Below are positions 42,227-59,931 of a stretch of DNA of 64,000 bases, piece by piece; position 1 is the first letter of the stretch; each line of letters opens with the position of its first letter. This stretch comes from Armatimonadota bacterium (lineage in GTDB: Bacteria > Armatimonadota > SYMT01): positions 224,001 to 288,000 of the forward strand of contig JBKBRF010000004.1 of NCBI GenBank assembly GCA_046292385.1. Reading direction: 5' to 3'. The notes beneath the pieces were generated by a model, which did not search any database, was not told where the DNA came from, and saw only the letters and a list, made by a program, of their open reading frames with translations. The translations under genes were made by a program, and so were the position numbers.

Positions 42227-42287
42227 GAAATGAAAAGCCGCCCGCGGCGTGGTCCGATCAAACGACCACGCCGCCGGACGGCGGGTT
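42227..42287 (-). terminator. Terminator after tmRNA
   Basis: GCGGCGTGGTC/GACCACGCCGC stem followed on the minus strand by TTTTCATTTC. Confidence 0.6.
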
Positions 42288-42289
42288 AG

Positions 42290-42642
42290 TGGAGGCGCCG
42301 GGAGTTGAACCCGGGTCCAAAGGGATGCAGCTTAGACTTCTACGAGCGTATCCGATGATTTAATCTCGCGCTGTGCCCCCCATCGGCAGGGTGCATGCTC
42401 GCGCCAGCCCGCTAATACGCGAAACGGCCCGCAGGCAAAACCGTTCCGGTGGCCAGGTTTATCATCGCCCTACGCCGCGCCCCTGGCCGGGCTCGGATCG
42501 GACGCGCTAGCCTAGATTAGGCAGCGAGAGCGTAGCTCTGAGTGTTGTTCGCGTTTATGCGTTTGCCGCTTTTTACGAGGCCAGCGGCGCCTCGGCTCGC
42601 AATCTAAACCCCAAGTCTCCTCTGTCGACACCCATCGCCCCC
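42290..42642 (-). ncRNA. ssrA: Transfer-messenger RNA; tag (A)ANNTQSYALAA
   Basis: 5' GGGGGCG pairs with 3' CGCCTCC-A, including a G-U wobble; T-arm CCGGG-TTCAACT-CCCGG; tag ORF 42552-42517 GCG AAC AAC ACT CAG AGC TAC GCT CTC GCT GCC TAA. Confidence 0.96.
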
Positions 42643-43315: not shown

Positions 43316-44113
43316 TTAGTCCGTGTCCCAGGGATCGGCGCCGAACTGGTAGTGGCCGCCTGCGGCCTGCCCCCCACGGCTGTTGAACCACCAGTTGATG
43401 TCGTAGGCGGCGATCTGGTTGTTGCCGGAGACGAAGTTCACCTTCATCCACTTGGCGTGGCCGTCGTAGAACAGCGCGTTGGAGCCCTTGCTGCCGGTAT
43501 TGGCGCCGTTCCAGGAGTACGGATCTGCGCCGCCCGCGTGCCAGTGCTCTTCCACGAGGTAGGCCAACTGCGCCGGTCGCTGGATCACCGCCTGCGTCAC
43601 GTCTCCCACGATGGACGCATGCGTGTCGTGAGCGTGGCGCTGGTAATAGGAGCCGCGCTCGTTCCCCGCGATCCACCGCCCGACCTTGTTATCACTCGGG
43701 CAGCGGAAGATGCCCTCGTTCTTCGAGTATGGGTTGAGCCGCGCCGGATAGCCGGCGAGGACGCCGCGCACCGTGGCGGTGTTCGTTCCGGGCTGGTAGA
43801 GCCGGATTCCCCAGCAGGTGATGTGCGCCGCACCCAGGTAGGCGCCGGGGCTGCGGCCGATGGTGCTGCAGCCGCCTCCGTCCAGCGCGTCGAATGACTG
43901 GCGCGAGTCCGGGAAGGTCTCGTCGTAGTCCTGCGTGTACATCATGGCCGCGGTGCCGATCTGCTTCATGTTGCTCAGGCAGCTCGCCTTGCGAGCCGCC
44001 TCGCGGGCACGGGCGAAGACGGGGAAGAGAATAGCCGCCAGGATGGCGATGATGGCAATTACGACGAGGAGCTCTATGAGCGTAAATCCTCGCCTGTCTC
44101 GACGATGAAACAT
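43316..44113 (-). CDS. Prepilin-type N-terminal cleavage/methylation protein (DUF1559, H-X9-DG-like C-terminus)
   Basis: [60 protein letters not shown]. Confidence 0.93.
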
Positions 44114-53048: not shown

Positions 53049-53259
53049 CCGTATGTCAAGTTCAGATTGAGTTCGTAGCGCATTACCGTTCGGAGTTCCA
53101 GGTCCGTCCTACTAGTGCTTTACCGCACCGGGACGGGCTTTTTTGTTGCTTCTGTGACTAGGCTGCCGACGACCGCCTTCTGTTTGGGACCCCTTGTGGC
53201 TCGGGACGAGCCGCCTTTCTGCCGCGATCTCGAAACCTTCGAGACCGGAAGGATACACC

Positions 53260-53568
53260 ATGAGCAAGCGATTATTCGTCGGCAACCTCTCGTTCAACAC
53301 CTCCGAAGCACAGCTTCAGACGACGTTCGCGCCGTATGGCTGCACCAGCGCCACGATCCCTACCGACTACGACGGGCGCGGCAAGGGCTTCGGCTTCGTG
53401 GACGTGAACGATGACCAGATGGACGCGGCCATCTCGGCCGTCAACGGCCGCGACGTGGACGGGCGCACGCTGAATGTGAATGAGGCTCGCCCGCGCCCCG
53501 AGCGCAGCGGTGGTGGCAGCCGTGGCGGCGATCGCCAGGGTGGATACGGCGGCGGCAACCGCTGGTAA
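53260..53568 (+). CDS. RNA-binding protein (RRM plus Gly-rich tail)
   Basis: RNP2 LFVGNL, RNP1 KGFGFV, LNVNEARPR and GGYGGGNRW; GAAGGA RBS. Confidence 0.95.
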   Translation: MSKRLFVGNLSFNTSEAQLQTTFAPYGCTSATIPTDYDGRGKGFGFVDVNDDQMDAAISAVNGRDVDGRTLNVNEARPRPERSGGGSRGGDRQGGYGGGNRW

Positions 53569-53584: not shown

Positions 53585-53633
53585 CAGAGAAGGCACACGC
53601 GCTCGTCAGGCGCGTGTGCCTTCTCTGCGTTTC
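53585..53633 (+). terminator. Long hairpin terminator after the RRM gene
   Basis: 18-bp stem CAGAGAAGGCACACGCGC / GCGCGTGTGCCTTCTCTG followed by CGTTTC. Confidence 0.65.
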
Positions 53634-54353: not shown

Positions 54354-56777
54354 ATGCGTCCCACCGGAGCCCGGACCCTATGGATCGCGACCCTCGCCCT
54401 CCTCCTCGCCTACGGCGCCCCCGGCCGCGCCCAGGACAGTGCTGCCGGCGCCTGCCGGGAGCGGCTGGCGGCGATTGGAAAGGCGGTGACCGCGTATGAG
54501 CGGGAGCACGGCAGCATCCCGGAGAGCTTCACGCGGCTCTTCCCGAAGCACCTCACTGACAGGAGCCTGCTGATCTGCCCGTCGGACGAGCAGCCGCGCG
54601 CGTTGCGCGACGGGGACCTGCCCGCGAGCTACCACTCGTGGTGGAACGACAACCCGGACGGAAGCGGCATGCGGCTCTCGCCGCCGCGCGCCGGCGCGAC
54701 CCAGCGGGAGGTGCTGACAGCGCAGCGCCAGAACTTTGGCGACCACGTGCCGGTCACCGCGTGCTGGCGTCACCGCCTGCTGCTGGCGGTGAGCGGCGAA
54801 GTACGGCCGACCGGGCGCTTCTGGCAGCAGGACCTGGTGGTGTTCCCGACCGTGGTCGCCTCGCTGCACCGGGACGCGCTGGGGGAGAAGGCGGCCTTCG
54901 ATCGCCGTTGGGATCTCGCGGCGCTCGGAAAGTACTTGAAGTGGGCACTGGAGGCCGAGGTCCGGCTGGACGGGGAGGGCCGAACCCGACTGCGGGAAGC
55001 GGCCGCCGCGATCCGCGACCGCGCCGGCGCTCCGGAAGGCGTGCGGAGCTTCACCGCCGGGATGGCGTTCGCGGTAGCAGGCGAGACCGACCCCGCCTTC
55101 GACGCCCTGGAACGGTCGGTCCTCGCGAGCGACAGCCAGCACGAGCGGGCCCTGGAGCCGCTCGACGCGCTCTACCGGTCGGCGGCCCAGCCGGAGCGCG
55201 CGATCCGCTTCTACCGCAGGCTGCTCGACCGCTATCCCGGCGGCACCGGCTACGCCGCGAAGCTGGCCGACGCGTACCAGGCGGCCGGCCGGCGGGAAGA
55301 GGCGAGGGAGTGGTCCGCCAGGGCAGCGGCCGCGGCGGAAGCCGTCACCCGGCCGGCCTCCGTGGAGGCCTGCCGGCTCCGTCTCCAGGCGGTCCACCGG
55401 GCGCTGACTGCCTATCGCACCGATCGCGGAGAGCTGCCGGCGAACCTGTCCGACCTCGCTGCGGACCACCTGAAGCCGGAGCTGCTCCACTGCCCAAGCG
55501 ACCATTCTCCCGGCAGCCTCGGCACGCCGTTCGCCTACCGCGACCCGGCGGGCTACGTCAGCTACGCGTATGAGATGAGCCTGGCACCTTCCGGTGGGAT
55601 GCCGCACCCGCTCGGCCCCTTCCCCAGACGTCCGGACGGCTGGGGCAGCAGACGCGACGTGGCGACCCACCAGGGGACCTTCTACGGCCCGCAGGTTCCG
55701 GTCGTCCGCTGCTTCCATCACCGTCCCGCGGCGCGAGAGTCGAACGCCGACGACCAGGTGCTGAACCTGCGCGCGGATGGCTCGGTATACCGGAGTGGCT
55801 TCCGCTGGGAGAGTCACCCGGAGAGCGTGCGGATCGCGATGGAGGGAGCCGCGCGGGATCTGGATGCGGGCCCGGAAGTCTTCTCCCGGCGCTGGTATCT
55901 CGGACAGATCGATCAGGACGCCTCCGACTGGATCGAGGAGCCGCAGCCGCCGGAGACCCGCGCCGCGCTGGTCCGGCTGGCGAAGGCGCTGGAAACGCGG
56001 GCGAAGCAGCTCAAGCCGCTCTCCAAAGCGTTCGCCCTGCGCGTGGCGGGACGGCTCTACCGTGCCGGAGGGGAGCACGCAGCAGCGATCTGTGCGGGCA
56101 AGCAGGCGCTCGGCCTGCTGCCCGAGAGCGACCCCGGCGGCCGGAGCGCGGCGAAGGAGCTGCTCGCCGCGGCCTATCGGAGTGCGGAGCAGTACGACCC
56201 CGCGATCGTCCTCTACCGCGAGCTTCACGAGGCGAGCCCCAGGATCGGCTACTACATGGTCCAGCTTGCCGAGCTGCACGAGCTGGCGGGGCGCCCGGAA
56301 GACGCGCGTGCCTGGCGCCAGAAGGCCGACCCCGGCCAGCGACTGGTGGGGCAGCCGGCGCCGGACTTCACCGTAGCGACGCCGGGCGGAGAACAGCTCG
56401 CGTTGAGCCATGTCCGGCGCGGGGGGAAGGCGACGTTGATCAACTTCTGGTTCTATGGGTGAGGCGCCTGTCGTGAGGAGTTGCCTCACCTCCAGAAGCT
56501 GTATGCCGAGCTAAAAGGAAAGGGCCTGGAGATCATCGCCGTCAACCACGCCGACTCCAGGGAGACGGTGGAACGCTACTTCCGCACCAGCGGCTTCACC
56601 TTCCCGGTGGGGCTGGGGGACCGGGGGGCGGACGTCTTCTCCCGCTACGCGGTGGAAAGCTATCCCGCGAGCTACCTGCTGGATACTGACGGAAAGATCG
56701 TGTGGCGCGCGGTCGGCTACGGGCCCTCGACGCTGCAGGAGCTCAAGAAGGCGCTCGCCGGTCTCGGCGTGAAGTAG
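54354..56777 (+). CDS. Exported multidomain TlpA/redoxin-like selenoprotein (UxxC; UGA 56460-56462 = Sec), about 807 aa
   Basis: ORF 54354..56462 ends GQPAPDFTV...INFWFYG-TGA and continues in frame GACREELPHLQKL into ORF 56481..56777 (YPASYLLD..GKIVW), completing a thioredoxin fold. Signal peptide and two duplicated modules lie upstream. Confidence 0.88.
56463..56492 (+). promoter_or_regulatory. Bacterial SECIS-like hairpin after the redoxin UGA
   Basis: GTGAGG (56473-78), loop AGTTG, CCTCAC (56484-89); loop begins 17 nt after the UGA. Confidence 0.7.
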
Positions 56778-56908: not shown

Positions 56909-57373
56909 TCAGGCATCCGGGCGGATGTCGCTCCAGAGCTCCGCTCGAACGAACTGCGAGAGGTGGCCGATGTTAGAGGTGGCGATCACGAGCTCCTCTG
57001 GCCGCAGCCCGAGGTCGAGCGCTTGCGCCGCGAGAAGAACGTCGCAGTCAAGCTCTTTCGGGTCTGCAGTCGGTCGGCCGGAATTCCGGGCCGACGCCCA
57101 GAGACTCGCCGCCAGACGCAGAGCGGTATCGGTGAGCGGGAGGTAGCAGCCCGGCAATGCGCAGAAGGCTTCGAGGCGAGCCAGGCCGGTATCTCGCCCT
57201 GACCGGCGGAGCTCACGGGCAACCTCATAGTAGGCGATGGCGGGCGCCAGGATGCGACAATTGGCGCGGCGACACTCTGCCAACCATCGGCGACATGCTT
57301 CCGCCTCGGCAACACCCGCTCGCTGGGTGACGATGCTTAGCGGAGAGGTGTCGAGCACGATCGTGAGCGGCAT
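56909..57373 (-). CDS. PIN-domain toxin (VapC-like)
   Basis: Motifs IVLDTS, YEVAREL, DCDVLLAAQA and IATSNIGH. Confidence 0.88.
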   Translation of the reverse strand: MPLTIVLDTSPLSIVTQRAGVAEAEACRRWLAECRRANCRILAPAIAYYEVARELRRSGRDTGLARLEAFCALPGCYLPLTDTALRLAASLWASARNSGRPTADPKELDCDVLLAAQALDLGLRPEELVIATSNIGHLSQFVRAELWSDIRPDA

Positions 57374-57666
57374 CAGAACAGACGTCGAGAGCCGGCGCGC
57401 TCACGCTCGGCGTTTACGTTGCGCTTGAAGTCGTTCCAGAGGCGGCGCTCCTCCGCCACCTCATCCGGAGTCAGGTGCGCATCCTCTCGATCCCACTGCG
57501 CGAGGAGCGCCAGAGTGGGATCGGAGTCCTCGTTTAACTGCTCCAACGGTGGCAGGTGCTCGGCGAGAAGCCTTCGCGCTACCTCTTCAACCGACAGGCC
57601 CTGATCCCGGGCCGCGCGTGCGAGCCGCGCCTCGTCGTCCGGGGTGAGCTCGAGCTTGAGAGTCAT
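57373..57666 (-). CDS. Putative antitoxin (RHH-like N-terminus)
   Basis: MTLKLELTPDDEARLARAARDQGLSVEE; acidic C-terminus; TGATG coupling to the PIN gene. Confidence 0.78.
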   Translation of the reverse strand: MTLKLELTPDDEARLARAARDQGLSVEEVARRLLAEHLPPLEQLNEDSDPTLALLAQWDREDAHLTPDEVAEERRLWNDFKRNVNAERERAGSRRLF

Positions 57667-57687: not shown

Positions 57688-59502
57688 TCAGTCGTTGACG
57701 CGGAGCACCGACAGGAACGCTTCCTGCGGGATCTCCACGCGGCCGACCGACTTCATCCGCTTCTTCCCTTCCTTCTGCTTCTCCAGCAGCTTGCGCTTCC
57801 GGCTGATGTCACCGCCGTAGCACTTCGCCAGCACGTCCTTGCGGAGCGGGCGGACGCTTTCGGAGGCGATCACCTTGCTGCCGAGCGCGGCCTGGATGCG
57901 GATCTCGAACATCTGCCGGGGCAGGATCTCCTTCAGACGCTCCGCGAGCTGCTTGCCGCGGGCGTAGGCGCGCTCCCGGTGCGTGATGAAGGAGAGGGCG
58001 TCGACCACGTCGCCGTTGATGAGGATGTCCATCTTCACCAGCGGGCTCTCCTTGTAGCCGCACAGCTCGTAGTCGAACGAGGCGTAGCCCTTCGTGCGGC
58101 TCTTCAGGTGGTCGAAGAAGTCCATCAGGATCTCCGCCAGCGGCAGCTCGTAGGAGAGGACGACACGCTCCGTCCCGGAGTACTCCATGTGCTTGAAGAT
58201 GCCGCGCCGGTCGTTGCACAGCTCCATGCAGGCGCCGACGTAGTCTTTCGGCGTGATGACGGTGGCGGCGACGTACGGCTCTTCCACTTTCTCGATCTTC
58301 GGGGTGGGGAGCCAGTGCGCCGGGTTGTCGATCTCGTGGACCGTCCCCGCGCTGTCGGTGACCCGGTAGATCACGGAGGGGGAGGTGGCGATCAGGTCGA
58401 GATCGAACTCGCGCTCCAGCCGCTCCTGGACGATCTCAGAGTGGAGCAGGCCGAGGAAGCCGCAGCGGAAGCCGAAGCCGAGCGCCGCGGAGGTCTCCGG
58501 CTCGAAGACGAGCGCGGAGTCGTTGAGCTGCAGCTTTTGGAGCGCCTCACGCAGGTCCGGGTAGTCCTCGCCGACGACCGGATAGAGGCCGCAGTAGACC
58601 ATCGGCTTTACGGTCTTGTAGCCGGGAAGCGGCTCGGTCGCCCCTCCCGGTCCTGCCACGGTGATCGTGTCGCCGACGCGGCACTCCCCGATCGACTTGA
58701 TCCCCGCGTGGATGTAGCCGGTCTGTCCGGTGGTGAGCCCCTCGGTGGCGCGCATCTCCGGGGCGAAGACGCCGACGCCGAGCACCTCGAACTGGCGTCC
58801 GGTGGCGAGCATCTTGATCTTCTGCCCTGCCTTGATCTCGCCATCGACGACACGGACGTAGGCGACGATCCCCACGTACGGGTCGAAATGGCTGTCGAAG
58901 ATCAGCGCTCGCAGCGGCGCGTCCGGGTCGCCGCTCGGGGGCGGAACTCGCTCGACGACCGCCTCCAGCAGCTCATCGATGCCGATCCCTTCCTTGGCGC
59001 TGACGAGGATGCACTCCTCGCCCGGGATCGCCAGCGACTCCTCGACTTCGTGGACCACGCGCTCCGGGTCGGCGGCGGGGAGGTCGATCTTGTTCAGCGT
59101 GGGGATCAGCGTGAGATTGCTGTTGAGCGCCAGGTTGACGTTGGCGAGGGTCTGCGCCTCTACGCCCTGGGCGGCGTCGACCACCAGGATCGCGCCCTCG
59201 CAGGCGGCGAGCGAGCGGGAGACTTCGTAGGTGAAGTCGACGTGGCCCGGCGTGTCGATCAGGTTCAGCTCGTAAAGCTGACCATCGTTCGCCCGGTAGT
59301 TCATCCGCACCGCGGCCATCTTGATGGTGATGCCGCGCTCCCGCTCCAGGTCCAGCTTGTCGAGCATCTGGTCCTGGTGCGCCTCGCGGCTTACCGTGCC
59401 GGTCACTTCCAGCAGGCGATCGGCCAGGGTCGACTTTCCGTGGTCGATGTGCGCGATGATGCAGAAGTTTCGGATATGCGCTTGTCGATCGCCCTTCGCC
59501 AT
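57688..59502 (-). CDS. lepA: Translation elongation factor 4 (LepA)
   Basis: Motifs [38 protein letters not shown] and [25 protein letters not shown]. Confidence 0.99.
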
Positions 59503-59858: not shown

Positions 59859-59931
59859 GGCGGGTGTAGCTCAGTGGTAGAGCGCCAGGTTGTGGCCCTG
59901 GAGGCCGGGGGTTCAATTCCCCTCATTCGCC
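59859..59931 (+). tRNA. tRNA-His (GUG); CCA not encoded
   Basis: G-1 plus GCGGGTG/CATTCGC acceptor stem with C discriminator; anticodon arm CCAGG-TTGTGGC-CCTGG; T-arm GGGGG-TTCAATT-CCCCT. Confidence 0.96.

Follow-up and report, generated by a model that had tools for sequence, protein, structure and literature searches.

A 64,000-nucleotide stretch of the genome of an Armatimonadota bacterium (GTDB lineage Bacteria; Armatimonadota; SYMT01), hereafter the window, corresponds to positions 224,001 to 288,000 of the forward strand of contig JBKBRF010000004.1 (assembly GCA_046292385.1). At 54354..56777 on its plus strand lies a gene which very probably encodes one exported selenoprotein of 807 residues, formed by a UGA-recoded ResA/TlpA-type reductase and two tandem accessory units, each with a pilin-fold module and a helical region of the tetratricopeptide repeat (TPR) type. 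The genome analysed is 98.45% complete and comprises 91 contigs (7.04 Mb). The features of the gene are collected in Table 1.

An in-frame UGA at the active site of a redoxin domain

In the list of open reading frames (ORFs) a TGA at 56460-56462 closes a frame of 702 residues (54354..56462, plus strand), and a frame of 98 residues follows at 56481..56777 in the same reading frame. When the TGA is read as selenocysteine (Sec, U) both are joined in a single 807-residue product ending at 56777, with ...GKATLINFWFYG-U703-GAC-REELPHLQKLY... around the recoded position. The enclosing stop-to-stop frame (ORF C4_+_278264_732) opens 30 codons 5' of the ATG. The initial annotation, made from the sequence alone, had placed the stop where the first Cys of a TlpA-type motif belongs, had read through it into the 98-residue frame, and had described two repeated units of about 300 residues. 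The coordinates and the length of the product were confirmed, and the alignment with ResA given below puts U703 on the expected Cys. The units proved to be real repeats, residues 28-330 being 32% identical to residues 331-660 over 328 columns (E 3e-24).

Within residues 665-800, a region that includes the position of the TGA, the read-through product matches the Pfam families AhpC-TSA (PF00578, E 2.1e-21, 76.6 bits against a cut-off of 26) and Redoxin (PF08534, E 7.7e-19, 68.4 bits against 26.6), as well as Thioredoxin_8 (E 2.3e-12). Among solved proteins ResA 4nmu_A is the nearest in sequence (phmmer, E 7.9e-23), and U703 is aligned with the first Cys of its CxxC motif. A Foldseek search with the modelled C-terminal domain retrieved the same entry (E 5.3e-11, target-normalised TM score 0.82-0.89, root-mean-square deviation (rmsd) about 2 Å), and the closest solved structures to the domain are the ResA, DsbE, StoA and TlpA reductases. 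The model (predicted local distance difference test score, pLDDT, 93.5), the Foldseek superposition and the motif alignment locate a (C/U)xxC motif at the N-terminus of helix 1 of a thioredoxin fold. These alignments establish that the C-terminal domain has a thioredoxin fold of the ResA/TlpA/CcmG type and U-G-A-C as its active site; by analogy with the family it is most likely an extracytoplasmic thiol-disulfide reductase. It resembles ResA, TlpA, CcmG (DsbE) and StoA in sequence, fold and motif position, and further in the export signal of the protein and in the presence of a DsbD_TM-type partner in the genome (homologue at C84:7763-8395, 93.1 bits). It differs from them in that Sec replaces Cys, in some 640 extra N-terminal residues, and in that no cytochrome-maturation or copper-assembly genes are seen as neighbours.

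Selenocysteine machinery and homologues

All the genes for selenocysteine incorporation that were sought were found in the genome above their cut-offs: selC (tRNA-Sec) at C11:87438-87532 (66.6 bits; ARAGORN assigned SeC with anticodon tca), selA (577.9 bits), selB (367.5 bits) and selD (362.3 bits), the last three against curated cut-offs. The genes for tRNA-Sec, selD and selA adjoin one another at C11:87438-90122, and selD is probably a selenoprotein gene too, because one in-frame TGA lies inside it.

A tblastn search with the redoxin domain gave 14 matches in the genome, in which the first position of the xxC motif is TGA in eight, Cys in five and missing together with the motif in one. All eight TGA genes give complete AhpC-TSA/Redoxin domains upon read-through. 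The seven others, located at C14:77453-78742, C14:76271-77449, C17:7066-8583, C22:71910-73142, C18:43521-44036, C6:130668-132170 and C13:84984-85805, have the hairpin downstream of the UGA as well; in their N-terminal regions, which vary, Pfam finds no match. The tandem pair on C14 is similar to the present gene in its redoxin domain (52% and 49% identical), in the motif FWFYG-U-GAC and in the hairpin, and it differs in the N-terminal 250-285 residues or so, which match neither Pfam nor the profile hidden Markov model (HMM) of the module described below. Taken as a group, the seven genes have the appearance of a Sec-redoxin cassette combined with accessory parts of various kinds.

At the position of the UGA a Cys is found in homologues that share the N-terminal architecture, as in LINFWFYG-C-GACREE (L053) and FWFYG-C-GPC (L055), and further Cys homologues, among them P0007, P0009, P0012 and P0014, are aligned at U703. 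Other records end exactly before this position: 11 of 150 module-bearing representatives do so, namely the present protein, which public gene calling stops at the TGA (P0002, 702 residues), and ten others (for example P0005, ending '...LINFWFYG'). Those that were looked up bear the JGI names 'TPR repeat protein' or 'hypothetical protein'. An assembly error does not account for the codon, given that contigs from two other samples and studies (X2 and X3) cover 56460-56462 with no differing letter. Run X1 may be the source and is not independent, and run X4, which covers the UGA and has one differing letter at an unlisted place in 56419-56569, is not counted as support.

A hairpin downstream of the UGA

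A hairpin of the selenocysteine insertion sequence (SECIS) type, also suspected in the initial annotation, starts 10-11 nucleotides 3' of the UGA with the stem 56473-56478/56484-56489 (GUGAGG-AGUUG-CCUCAC). The E. coli fdhF element has a matching spacing of 11 nucleotides. The hairpin recurs at 14 of 14 aligned UGA sites, that is, all eight of the genome and six in relatives or a metagenome contig. In the alignment of these 14 sequences 90.8% of the cells pair, against 81.5 ± 1.9 in shuffled alignments (0 of 500 reach the value), and slid controls pair at 68.4% at most. Both sides have changed in three of seven stem pairs, pair 20:30 being CG in seven sequences, AU in six and UA in one, and the covariation score of 0.239, compared with 0.069 in shuffled alignments, was reached by none of 500. 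In one of the compensatory changes Glu becomes Ala (GAG to GCG), and the opposite side of the stem changes silently in a Pro codon (CCU to CCG). The median folding energy of the window +9..+32 is -9.7 kcal/mol at 13 Sec sites and -3.0 kcal/mol at 28 Cys sites (Mann-Whitney p 5.7e-7), a comparison in which the sequences are kin and not independent, the Cys row of L046 is spurious and the site of this gene lies outside the motif window. Taken with the Cys homologues and the machinery, the comparative sequence evidence shows that UGA703 codes for Sec and that a hairpin within the reading frame serves it.

The pilin-like module

The first 200 residues or so of each repeat have no Pfam or NCBIfam model, and curated libraries gave sub-threshold hints only: DUF1559 for module 1 (PF07596, E 0.14, 12.6 bits against a cut-off of 23.3; no match for module 2), and T2SSG (E 0.078, 13.5 bits against 21) and GspG (E 0.029) for module 2. 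These hints all fall at profile positions after the pilin helix. No match to N_methyl (PF07963) or TIGR02532 was found in the read-through protein, and the prepilin motif G-F-T-L-x-E is absent from the translation of leader residues 1-26. Both models match a pilin encoded in the window at 43316..44113 (minus strand), a typical prepilin-type protein in which an N_methyl motif and the start of DUF1559 are accompanied by a weak H-X9-DG signature at the C-terminus. A comparison of the genome with it gave 53 or more ORFs at E <= 1e-5.

By exhaustive profile search the module was found in 668 representative proteins at E <= 1e-3, of which 199 reach E <= 1e-10 and 31 reach E <= 1e-30. Across 46 sequences (module-2 numbering) P32, L38, Y74, C123 and H126 are invariant, and conservation is 90% or higher at C10, C50-P51-x-D53, H125 and other positions. 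Module 2 carries the family-conserved C340, C380-P-S-D383 and C453-F-H455-H456, and module 1 has R where the first His of the His pair stands. In a quick tree of 46 modules the two copies are not sisters; its branches are unresolved, and a single origin is still compatible with it.

Comparison of the module with 49 DUF1559 prepilin-type paralogues of the same genome by hhalign gave a probability of 98.0% and E 1.6e-13 over 84 columns, which begin at the Cys after the pilin helix and end in the CPSD...SY.Y region; for the C-terminal half of the module the alignment to DUF1559 is only of low confidence. The module HMM also matches DUF1559 pilins of the genome directly (for example at 2.9e-8 and 1.7e-7), at HMM positions 6-105 only, and the window pilin at E 3e-4. 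The AlphaFold2 model of the module, built with the family alignment, is confident (pLDDT 92.8, predicted template modelling score (pTM) 0.88). In a VIA-align search of 48,161 chains, the 11 best rows, and 30 of the 50 in all, are pilins or pseudopilins, and these matches align from about chain residue 27, just past the hydrophobic half of the helix. Among the language-model neighbours are a 'T2SS protein G family' cluster and a cluster with PF07596 on 17% of its members.

These comparisons lead us to read the module as a probable pilin-fold domain that lacks the helix; its homology to DUF1559 is distant, and it falls outside that Pfam family. The resemblance to the globular part of DUF1559/GspG pilins without their N-terminal helix, proposed in the initial annotation, stands for the N-terminal 100 residues or so; the alignment behind an 'H...DG' likeness of the C-terminal half has low confidence. 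The module shares with DUF1559 (H-X9-DG) proteins, GspG pseudopilins and type IV pilins the pattern C..L..IG.A..Y..P ... CPSD ... SY.Y of these N-terminal residues, and it differs from them in lacking the prepilin cleavage/methylation motif and the hydrophobic helix. It is further distinguished from the DUF1559 pilins by a C-terminal half with an invariant VPVVRC-x-HH specific to the module family, and by its position inside soluble multidomain enzymes.

Four adjacent ORFs at C2:151048-153700 (E 2e-13 to 4e-4) and one at C12:117158-118000 (4e-17) match the N-terminal half of the module HMM only. Such ORFs may represent intermediate forms on the way from DUF1559 pilins to the soluble module.

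Architecture in other proteins

Among the 150 module-bearing representatives, the module is followed by a complete redoxin domain in 26 and by a redoxin domain cut at the U position in 11; a thioredoxin-like domain precedes two modules in 15, and 98 have no redoxin domain. The typical single-unit protein has 470-520 residues, with the module, TPR and AhpC-TSA/Redoxin in this order, and it recurs in metagenomes and metagenome-assembled genomes (MAGs) with Cys or Sec. Of the 150 representatives, this protein alone has two full module-plus-TPR units before a C-terminal redoxin domain. Other fusion partners of the module are beta-lactamase-like, BlaR1/M56, S41, S9, RDD and TIR domains, with sensors of the BlaR1 type and peptidases among them.

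Module relatives with titles come from Planctomycetota, Pirellulales and Poribacteria MAGs, and titled examples of the architecture include two Poribacteria chromosomes (L047, L050). A Pirellulales MAG encodes a protein of about 1,100 residues with Ser/Thr-kinase-like, LRR, module, CGPC-redoxin and LamG-like parts (L045), and in a Poribacteria MAG (L046) a sigma-70-like fusion has a redoxin domain that has lost CxxC (FWMVWRDFG). Three Planctomycetota MAGs (L048, L049, L052) carry membrane-anchored stand-alone modules with a hydrophobic helix right before the first conserved Cys.

A search for related loci with an 11-row alignment returned nine genome and four metagenome loci, at one of which (L056) a UGA redoxin lies upstream of a separate module gene. 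None of these loci holds the Sec form of the module-redoxin protein, and the truncated homologues are known from protein records alone. Within its own genome the module HMM found no other ORF with a full module. Across 40 related genomes the matches to the full-protein query cover residues 632-807 or so only, and the modules were not found with it. A word-based search for whole-protein homologues returned the protein itself and two weak redoxin matches; an exhaustive profile search was needed.

The CxxC motif is missing in 12 of the 26 complete module-then-redoxin homologues and in all 15 redoxin-then-module homologues, as counted by a regular expression and confirmed by eye for L046 alone, so that the three-part body is kept even without redox cysteines. 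Module 2, the following helices and the redoxin domain were modelled as one chain of 477 residues (pLDDT 93.5, pTM 0.88), in which one unit and the redoxin domain are predicted to form a compact body.

Proposed mechanism and alternatives

We propose that SelB with Sec-tRNA(Sec) would bind the hairpin downstream of the UGA, inside the reading frame, and that UGA703 would be read as selenocysteine. In the exported enzyme the selenolate of U703 would attack a disulfide of the client and C706 would resolve the resulting selenosulfide, the enzyme being then re-reduced by a membrane protein of the DsbD/CcdA type, which is present in the genome. The accessory units may be client-docking or specificity parts of the enzyme. 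From the fusion patterns and the compact model we infer that the pilin-fold/TPR units either dock clients and give specificity or hold a site of their own.

Several results weigh against this reading. The recoding rests on sequence evidence, the sole listed RNA run having contained 0.05 of the sampled words. An Rfam scan of the window at gathering thresholds found no SECIS family, only a transfer-messenger RNA (tmRNA) and one tRNA. The stem of this gene has six base pairs because its seventh pair is A.G, and the minimum-energy fold favours a longer hairpin which includes the UGA itself, with a z of only -2.49. The redoxin domain scores 91.8 bits with the NCBIfam ResA subfamily NF002854, under its cut-off of 170, and it is likewise under the cut-offs of NF041054 WAxxUGC_long (35.3 against 300 bits), NF040769 SelL_rel_redox (27.8 against 120) and NF053656 redoxin_TUGYCR (20.1 against 100). 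The reductase direction and the electron route are drawn by analogy. For the module, Foldseek found nothing in the PDB at E <= 0.001, and the best pilin in the VIA-align search has a Z of 5.3 (rmsd 2.5 Å, 83 aligned residues), under the caution level of 8 of that tool. Finally, the three-part body persists in homologues without CxxC and may therefore serve some purpose other than redox catalysis as well.

A broader proposal, which we put forward tentatively and with more doubt than confidence, is that the module represents an undescribed extracytoplasmic family derived from DUF1559-type pilins. Together with the TPR region and the thioredoxin fold it could make up a three-part machine centred on a Cys/His site, for metal handling or for a redox relay to pilin-like surface proteins; the machine would carry its own reductant in the Sec/Cys redoxin, and the doubled form would serve two clients or a dimeric client.

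Two more specific assignments of the module are both improbable. According to the first, which is the model of the initial annotation, the modules would recognise Cys-bearing DUF1559 prepilin-type proteins by likeness, and the Sec redoxin would reduce or isomerise their disulfides during export or assembly. The homology of the module to DUF1559 pilins, with both Cys motifs in common (C..L..IG.A..Y and CPSD), and the abundance of such proteins in the genome (the 53 or more ORFs mentioned above) are consistent with it. Pilins, however, are assembled chiefly by way of their N-terminal helix, which is absent from the module; the fusions to beta-lactamase-like, BlaR1/M56, S41, S9, RDD and TIR domains fit a general docking or ligand-binding domain better, and the gene has no pilin or secretion neighbours and is preceded by a terminator at 53585-53627.

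In the second, to which we give an equally low probability, the Cys/His/Asp cluster of the module (C..CPxD..C-x-H-H) would be a metal site or a redox site of its own, served by the redoxin domain, which could for example keep metal-binding cysteines reduced. TlpA keeps the cysteines of copper-centre assembly proteins reduced. The conservation of C123 and H126 (invariant) and of C10, C50, P51, D53 and H125 (at least 90%) points to such a site, as do the compact model of module, helices and redoxin (pTM 0.88) and the conservation of this body even where the redoxin domain has lost CxxC. On the other hand, the first His of the pair is R in module 1, C10 and C50 occur in DUF1559 pilins too and may be no more than a structural disulfide, and no metal-related neighbour genes are seen at the locus.

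It is somewhat less probable still that the redoxin domain works as a peroxidase or as an oxidase/isomerase instead of a disulfide reductase. AhpC-TSA is the best Pfam family, some homologues match GSHPx weakly and bear the source name 'peroxiredoxin', and Sec enzymes are often peroxidases according to the consulted part of PMC13188914; the motif is nevertheless UxxC at the ResA/TlpA position, not the TxxU or PxxxTxxC of peroxiredoxins, and the nearest solved structures are those of ResA, DsbE, StoA and TlpA reductases. That the TGA is a genuine stop, leaving a secreted pilin-like/TPR protein of 702 residues and a 98-codon remnant or separate small gene, is very hard to believe, for although public gene callers end the protein there (P0002) and ten homologues are likewise recorded as truncated, the stop would fall at the catalytic Cys, 38 residues inside a Pfam-recognised redoxin domain that continues in frame, the covarying hairpin follows UGA forms only, and the Sec machinery is complete.

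Features and genomic context

The first unit stays below the Pfam threshold in its helical part (TPR_19 at 277-328, E 6.7e-5, 23.6 bits against a cut-off of 25), and the second exceeds it (TPR_12 at 538-589, E 1.5e-8, 35.1 bits against 30.1).

Table 1. Features of the probable selenoprotein gene, in window positions.
Feature	Positions	Strand	Evidence
Complete coding sequence (CDS) of the probable 807-residue selenoprotein, ATG to TAA/TAG-class stop, one in-frame UGA	54354..56777	+	
Probable Sec-type signal peptide, residues 1-26, MRPTGARTLWIATLALLLAYGAPGRA followed by QD	54354..54431	+	Translation read by eye; homologues with similar hydrophobic leaders
Pilin-fold module 1, residues ~30-198, the more diverged copy	54441..54947	+	Module HMM, domain E 2.7e-49; aligns with module 2
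TPR-like helical region 1, residues ~199-330	54948..55343	+	Aligns with helical region 2; Pfam TPR_19 sub-threshold
Pilin-fold module 2, residues 331-530	55344..55943	+	Module HMM, domain E 5.5e-71; AlphaFold2 model; pilin structural matches
TPR-like helical solenoid 2, residues ~531-664	55944..56345	+	Pfam TPR_12; helices at 203-334 of the 477-residue model
ResA/TlpA-type thioredoxin-fold (redoxin) domain, residues 665-807	56346..56774	+	Pfam; phmmer against PDB; Foldseek
UGA, selenocysteine U703, attacking residue of U-G-A-C	56460..56462	+	Alignments to Cys homologues and ResA
TGT codon of C706, resolving Cys of UxxC	56469..56471	+	
SECIS-type hairpin within the CDS, encoding part of C-R-E-E-L-P-H	56473..56489	+	Stem GUGAGG/CCUCAC, loop AGUUG

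The gene stands alone, with a terminator upstream and the downstream genes on the other strand. The terminator (53585..53627, plus strand), a perfect hairpin of 19 base pairs, follows a small RRM-like RNA-binding gene (53194..53568), and the roughly 700 nucleotides between it and the selenoprotein gene hold no long ORF of clear identity; a promoter scan upstream of the gene found no sigma-70-like site. Downstream, on the minus strand, are a toxin-antitoxin-like pair recognised by eye (56909..57666), in which a PIN-like gene and a short partner overlap by one codon, and a gene which by eye looks like that of the translation GTPase LepA (57688..59502) and whose GTPase region matched the selB model weakly. 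Rfam located the tmRNA gene at 42287..42642 (minus strand, 164.8 bits) and the tRNA gene at 59860..59931 (plus strand).

Relation to known selenoproteins and significance

Selenoproteins of the UxxC Prx-like, TlpA-like and redoxin types are catalogued in Table 1 of the review PMC13188914, and the part of PMC4807772 consulted reports Sec machinery in Planctomycetes. The present protein is similar to the catalogued UxxC redoxins, as far as the former source was covered, in the families PF00578/PF08534, in Sec for the first Cys of CxxC, in a SECIS just downstream within the CDS and in the existence of Cys homologues. It differs in its UGAC motif and in falling under the NCBIfam selenoprotein cut-offs, and the covered part of PMC13188914 mentions no pilin-like/TPR extension. 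Literature searches found no paper on a pilin-like domain joined to a TlpA-type redoxin; of the papers found, four contain the term 'DUF1559' and none contains 'H-X9-DG'. The claim of the initial annotation that this architecture is undescribed holds for names and papers only; in the databases the single-unit module-TPR-redoxin protein is common, and only the doubling is unique here, because the single-unit form recurs with Cys or Sec. The protein is a selenoprotein of a known kind, ordinary for the field, with an accessory architecture that is undescribed and here doubled.

The gene and at least ten homologues stand in databases as truncated 'TPR repeat' or hypothetical proteins, and the eight UxxC redoxins of this genome are cut at the UGA by gene callers. 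The DUF1559 family is large and functionally unknown, and the module is its first soluble relative attached to an enzyme of known chemistry, an attachment which offers a way to find out by experiment what domains of this sort bind.

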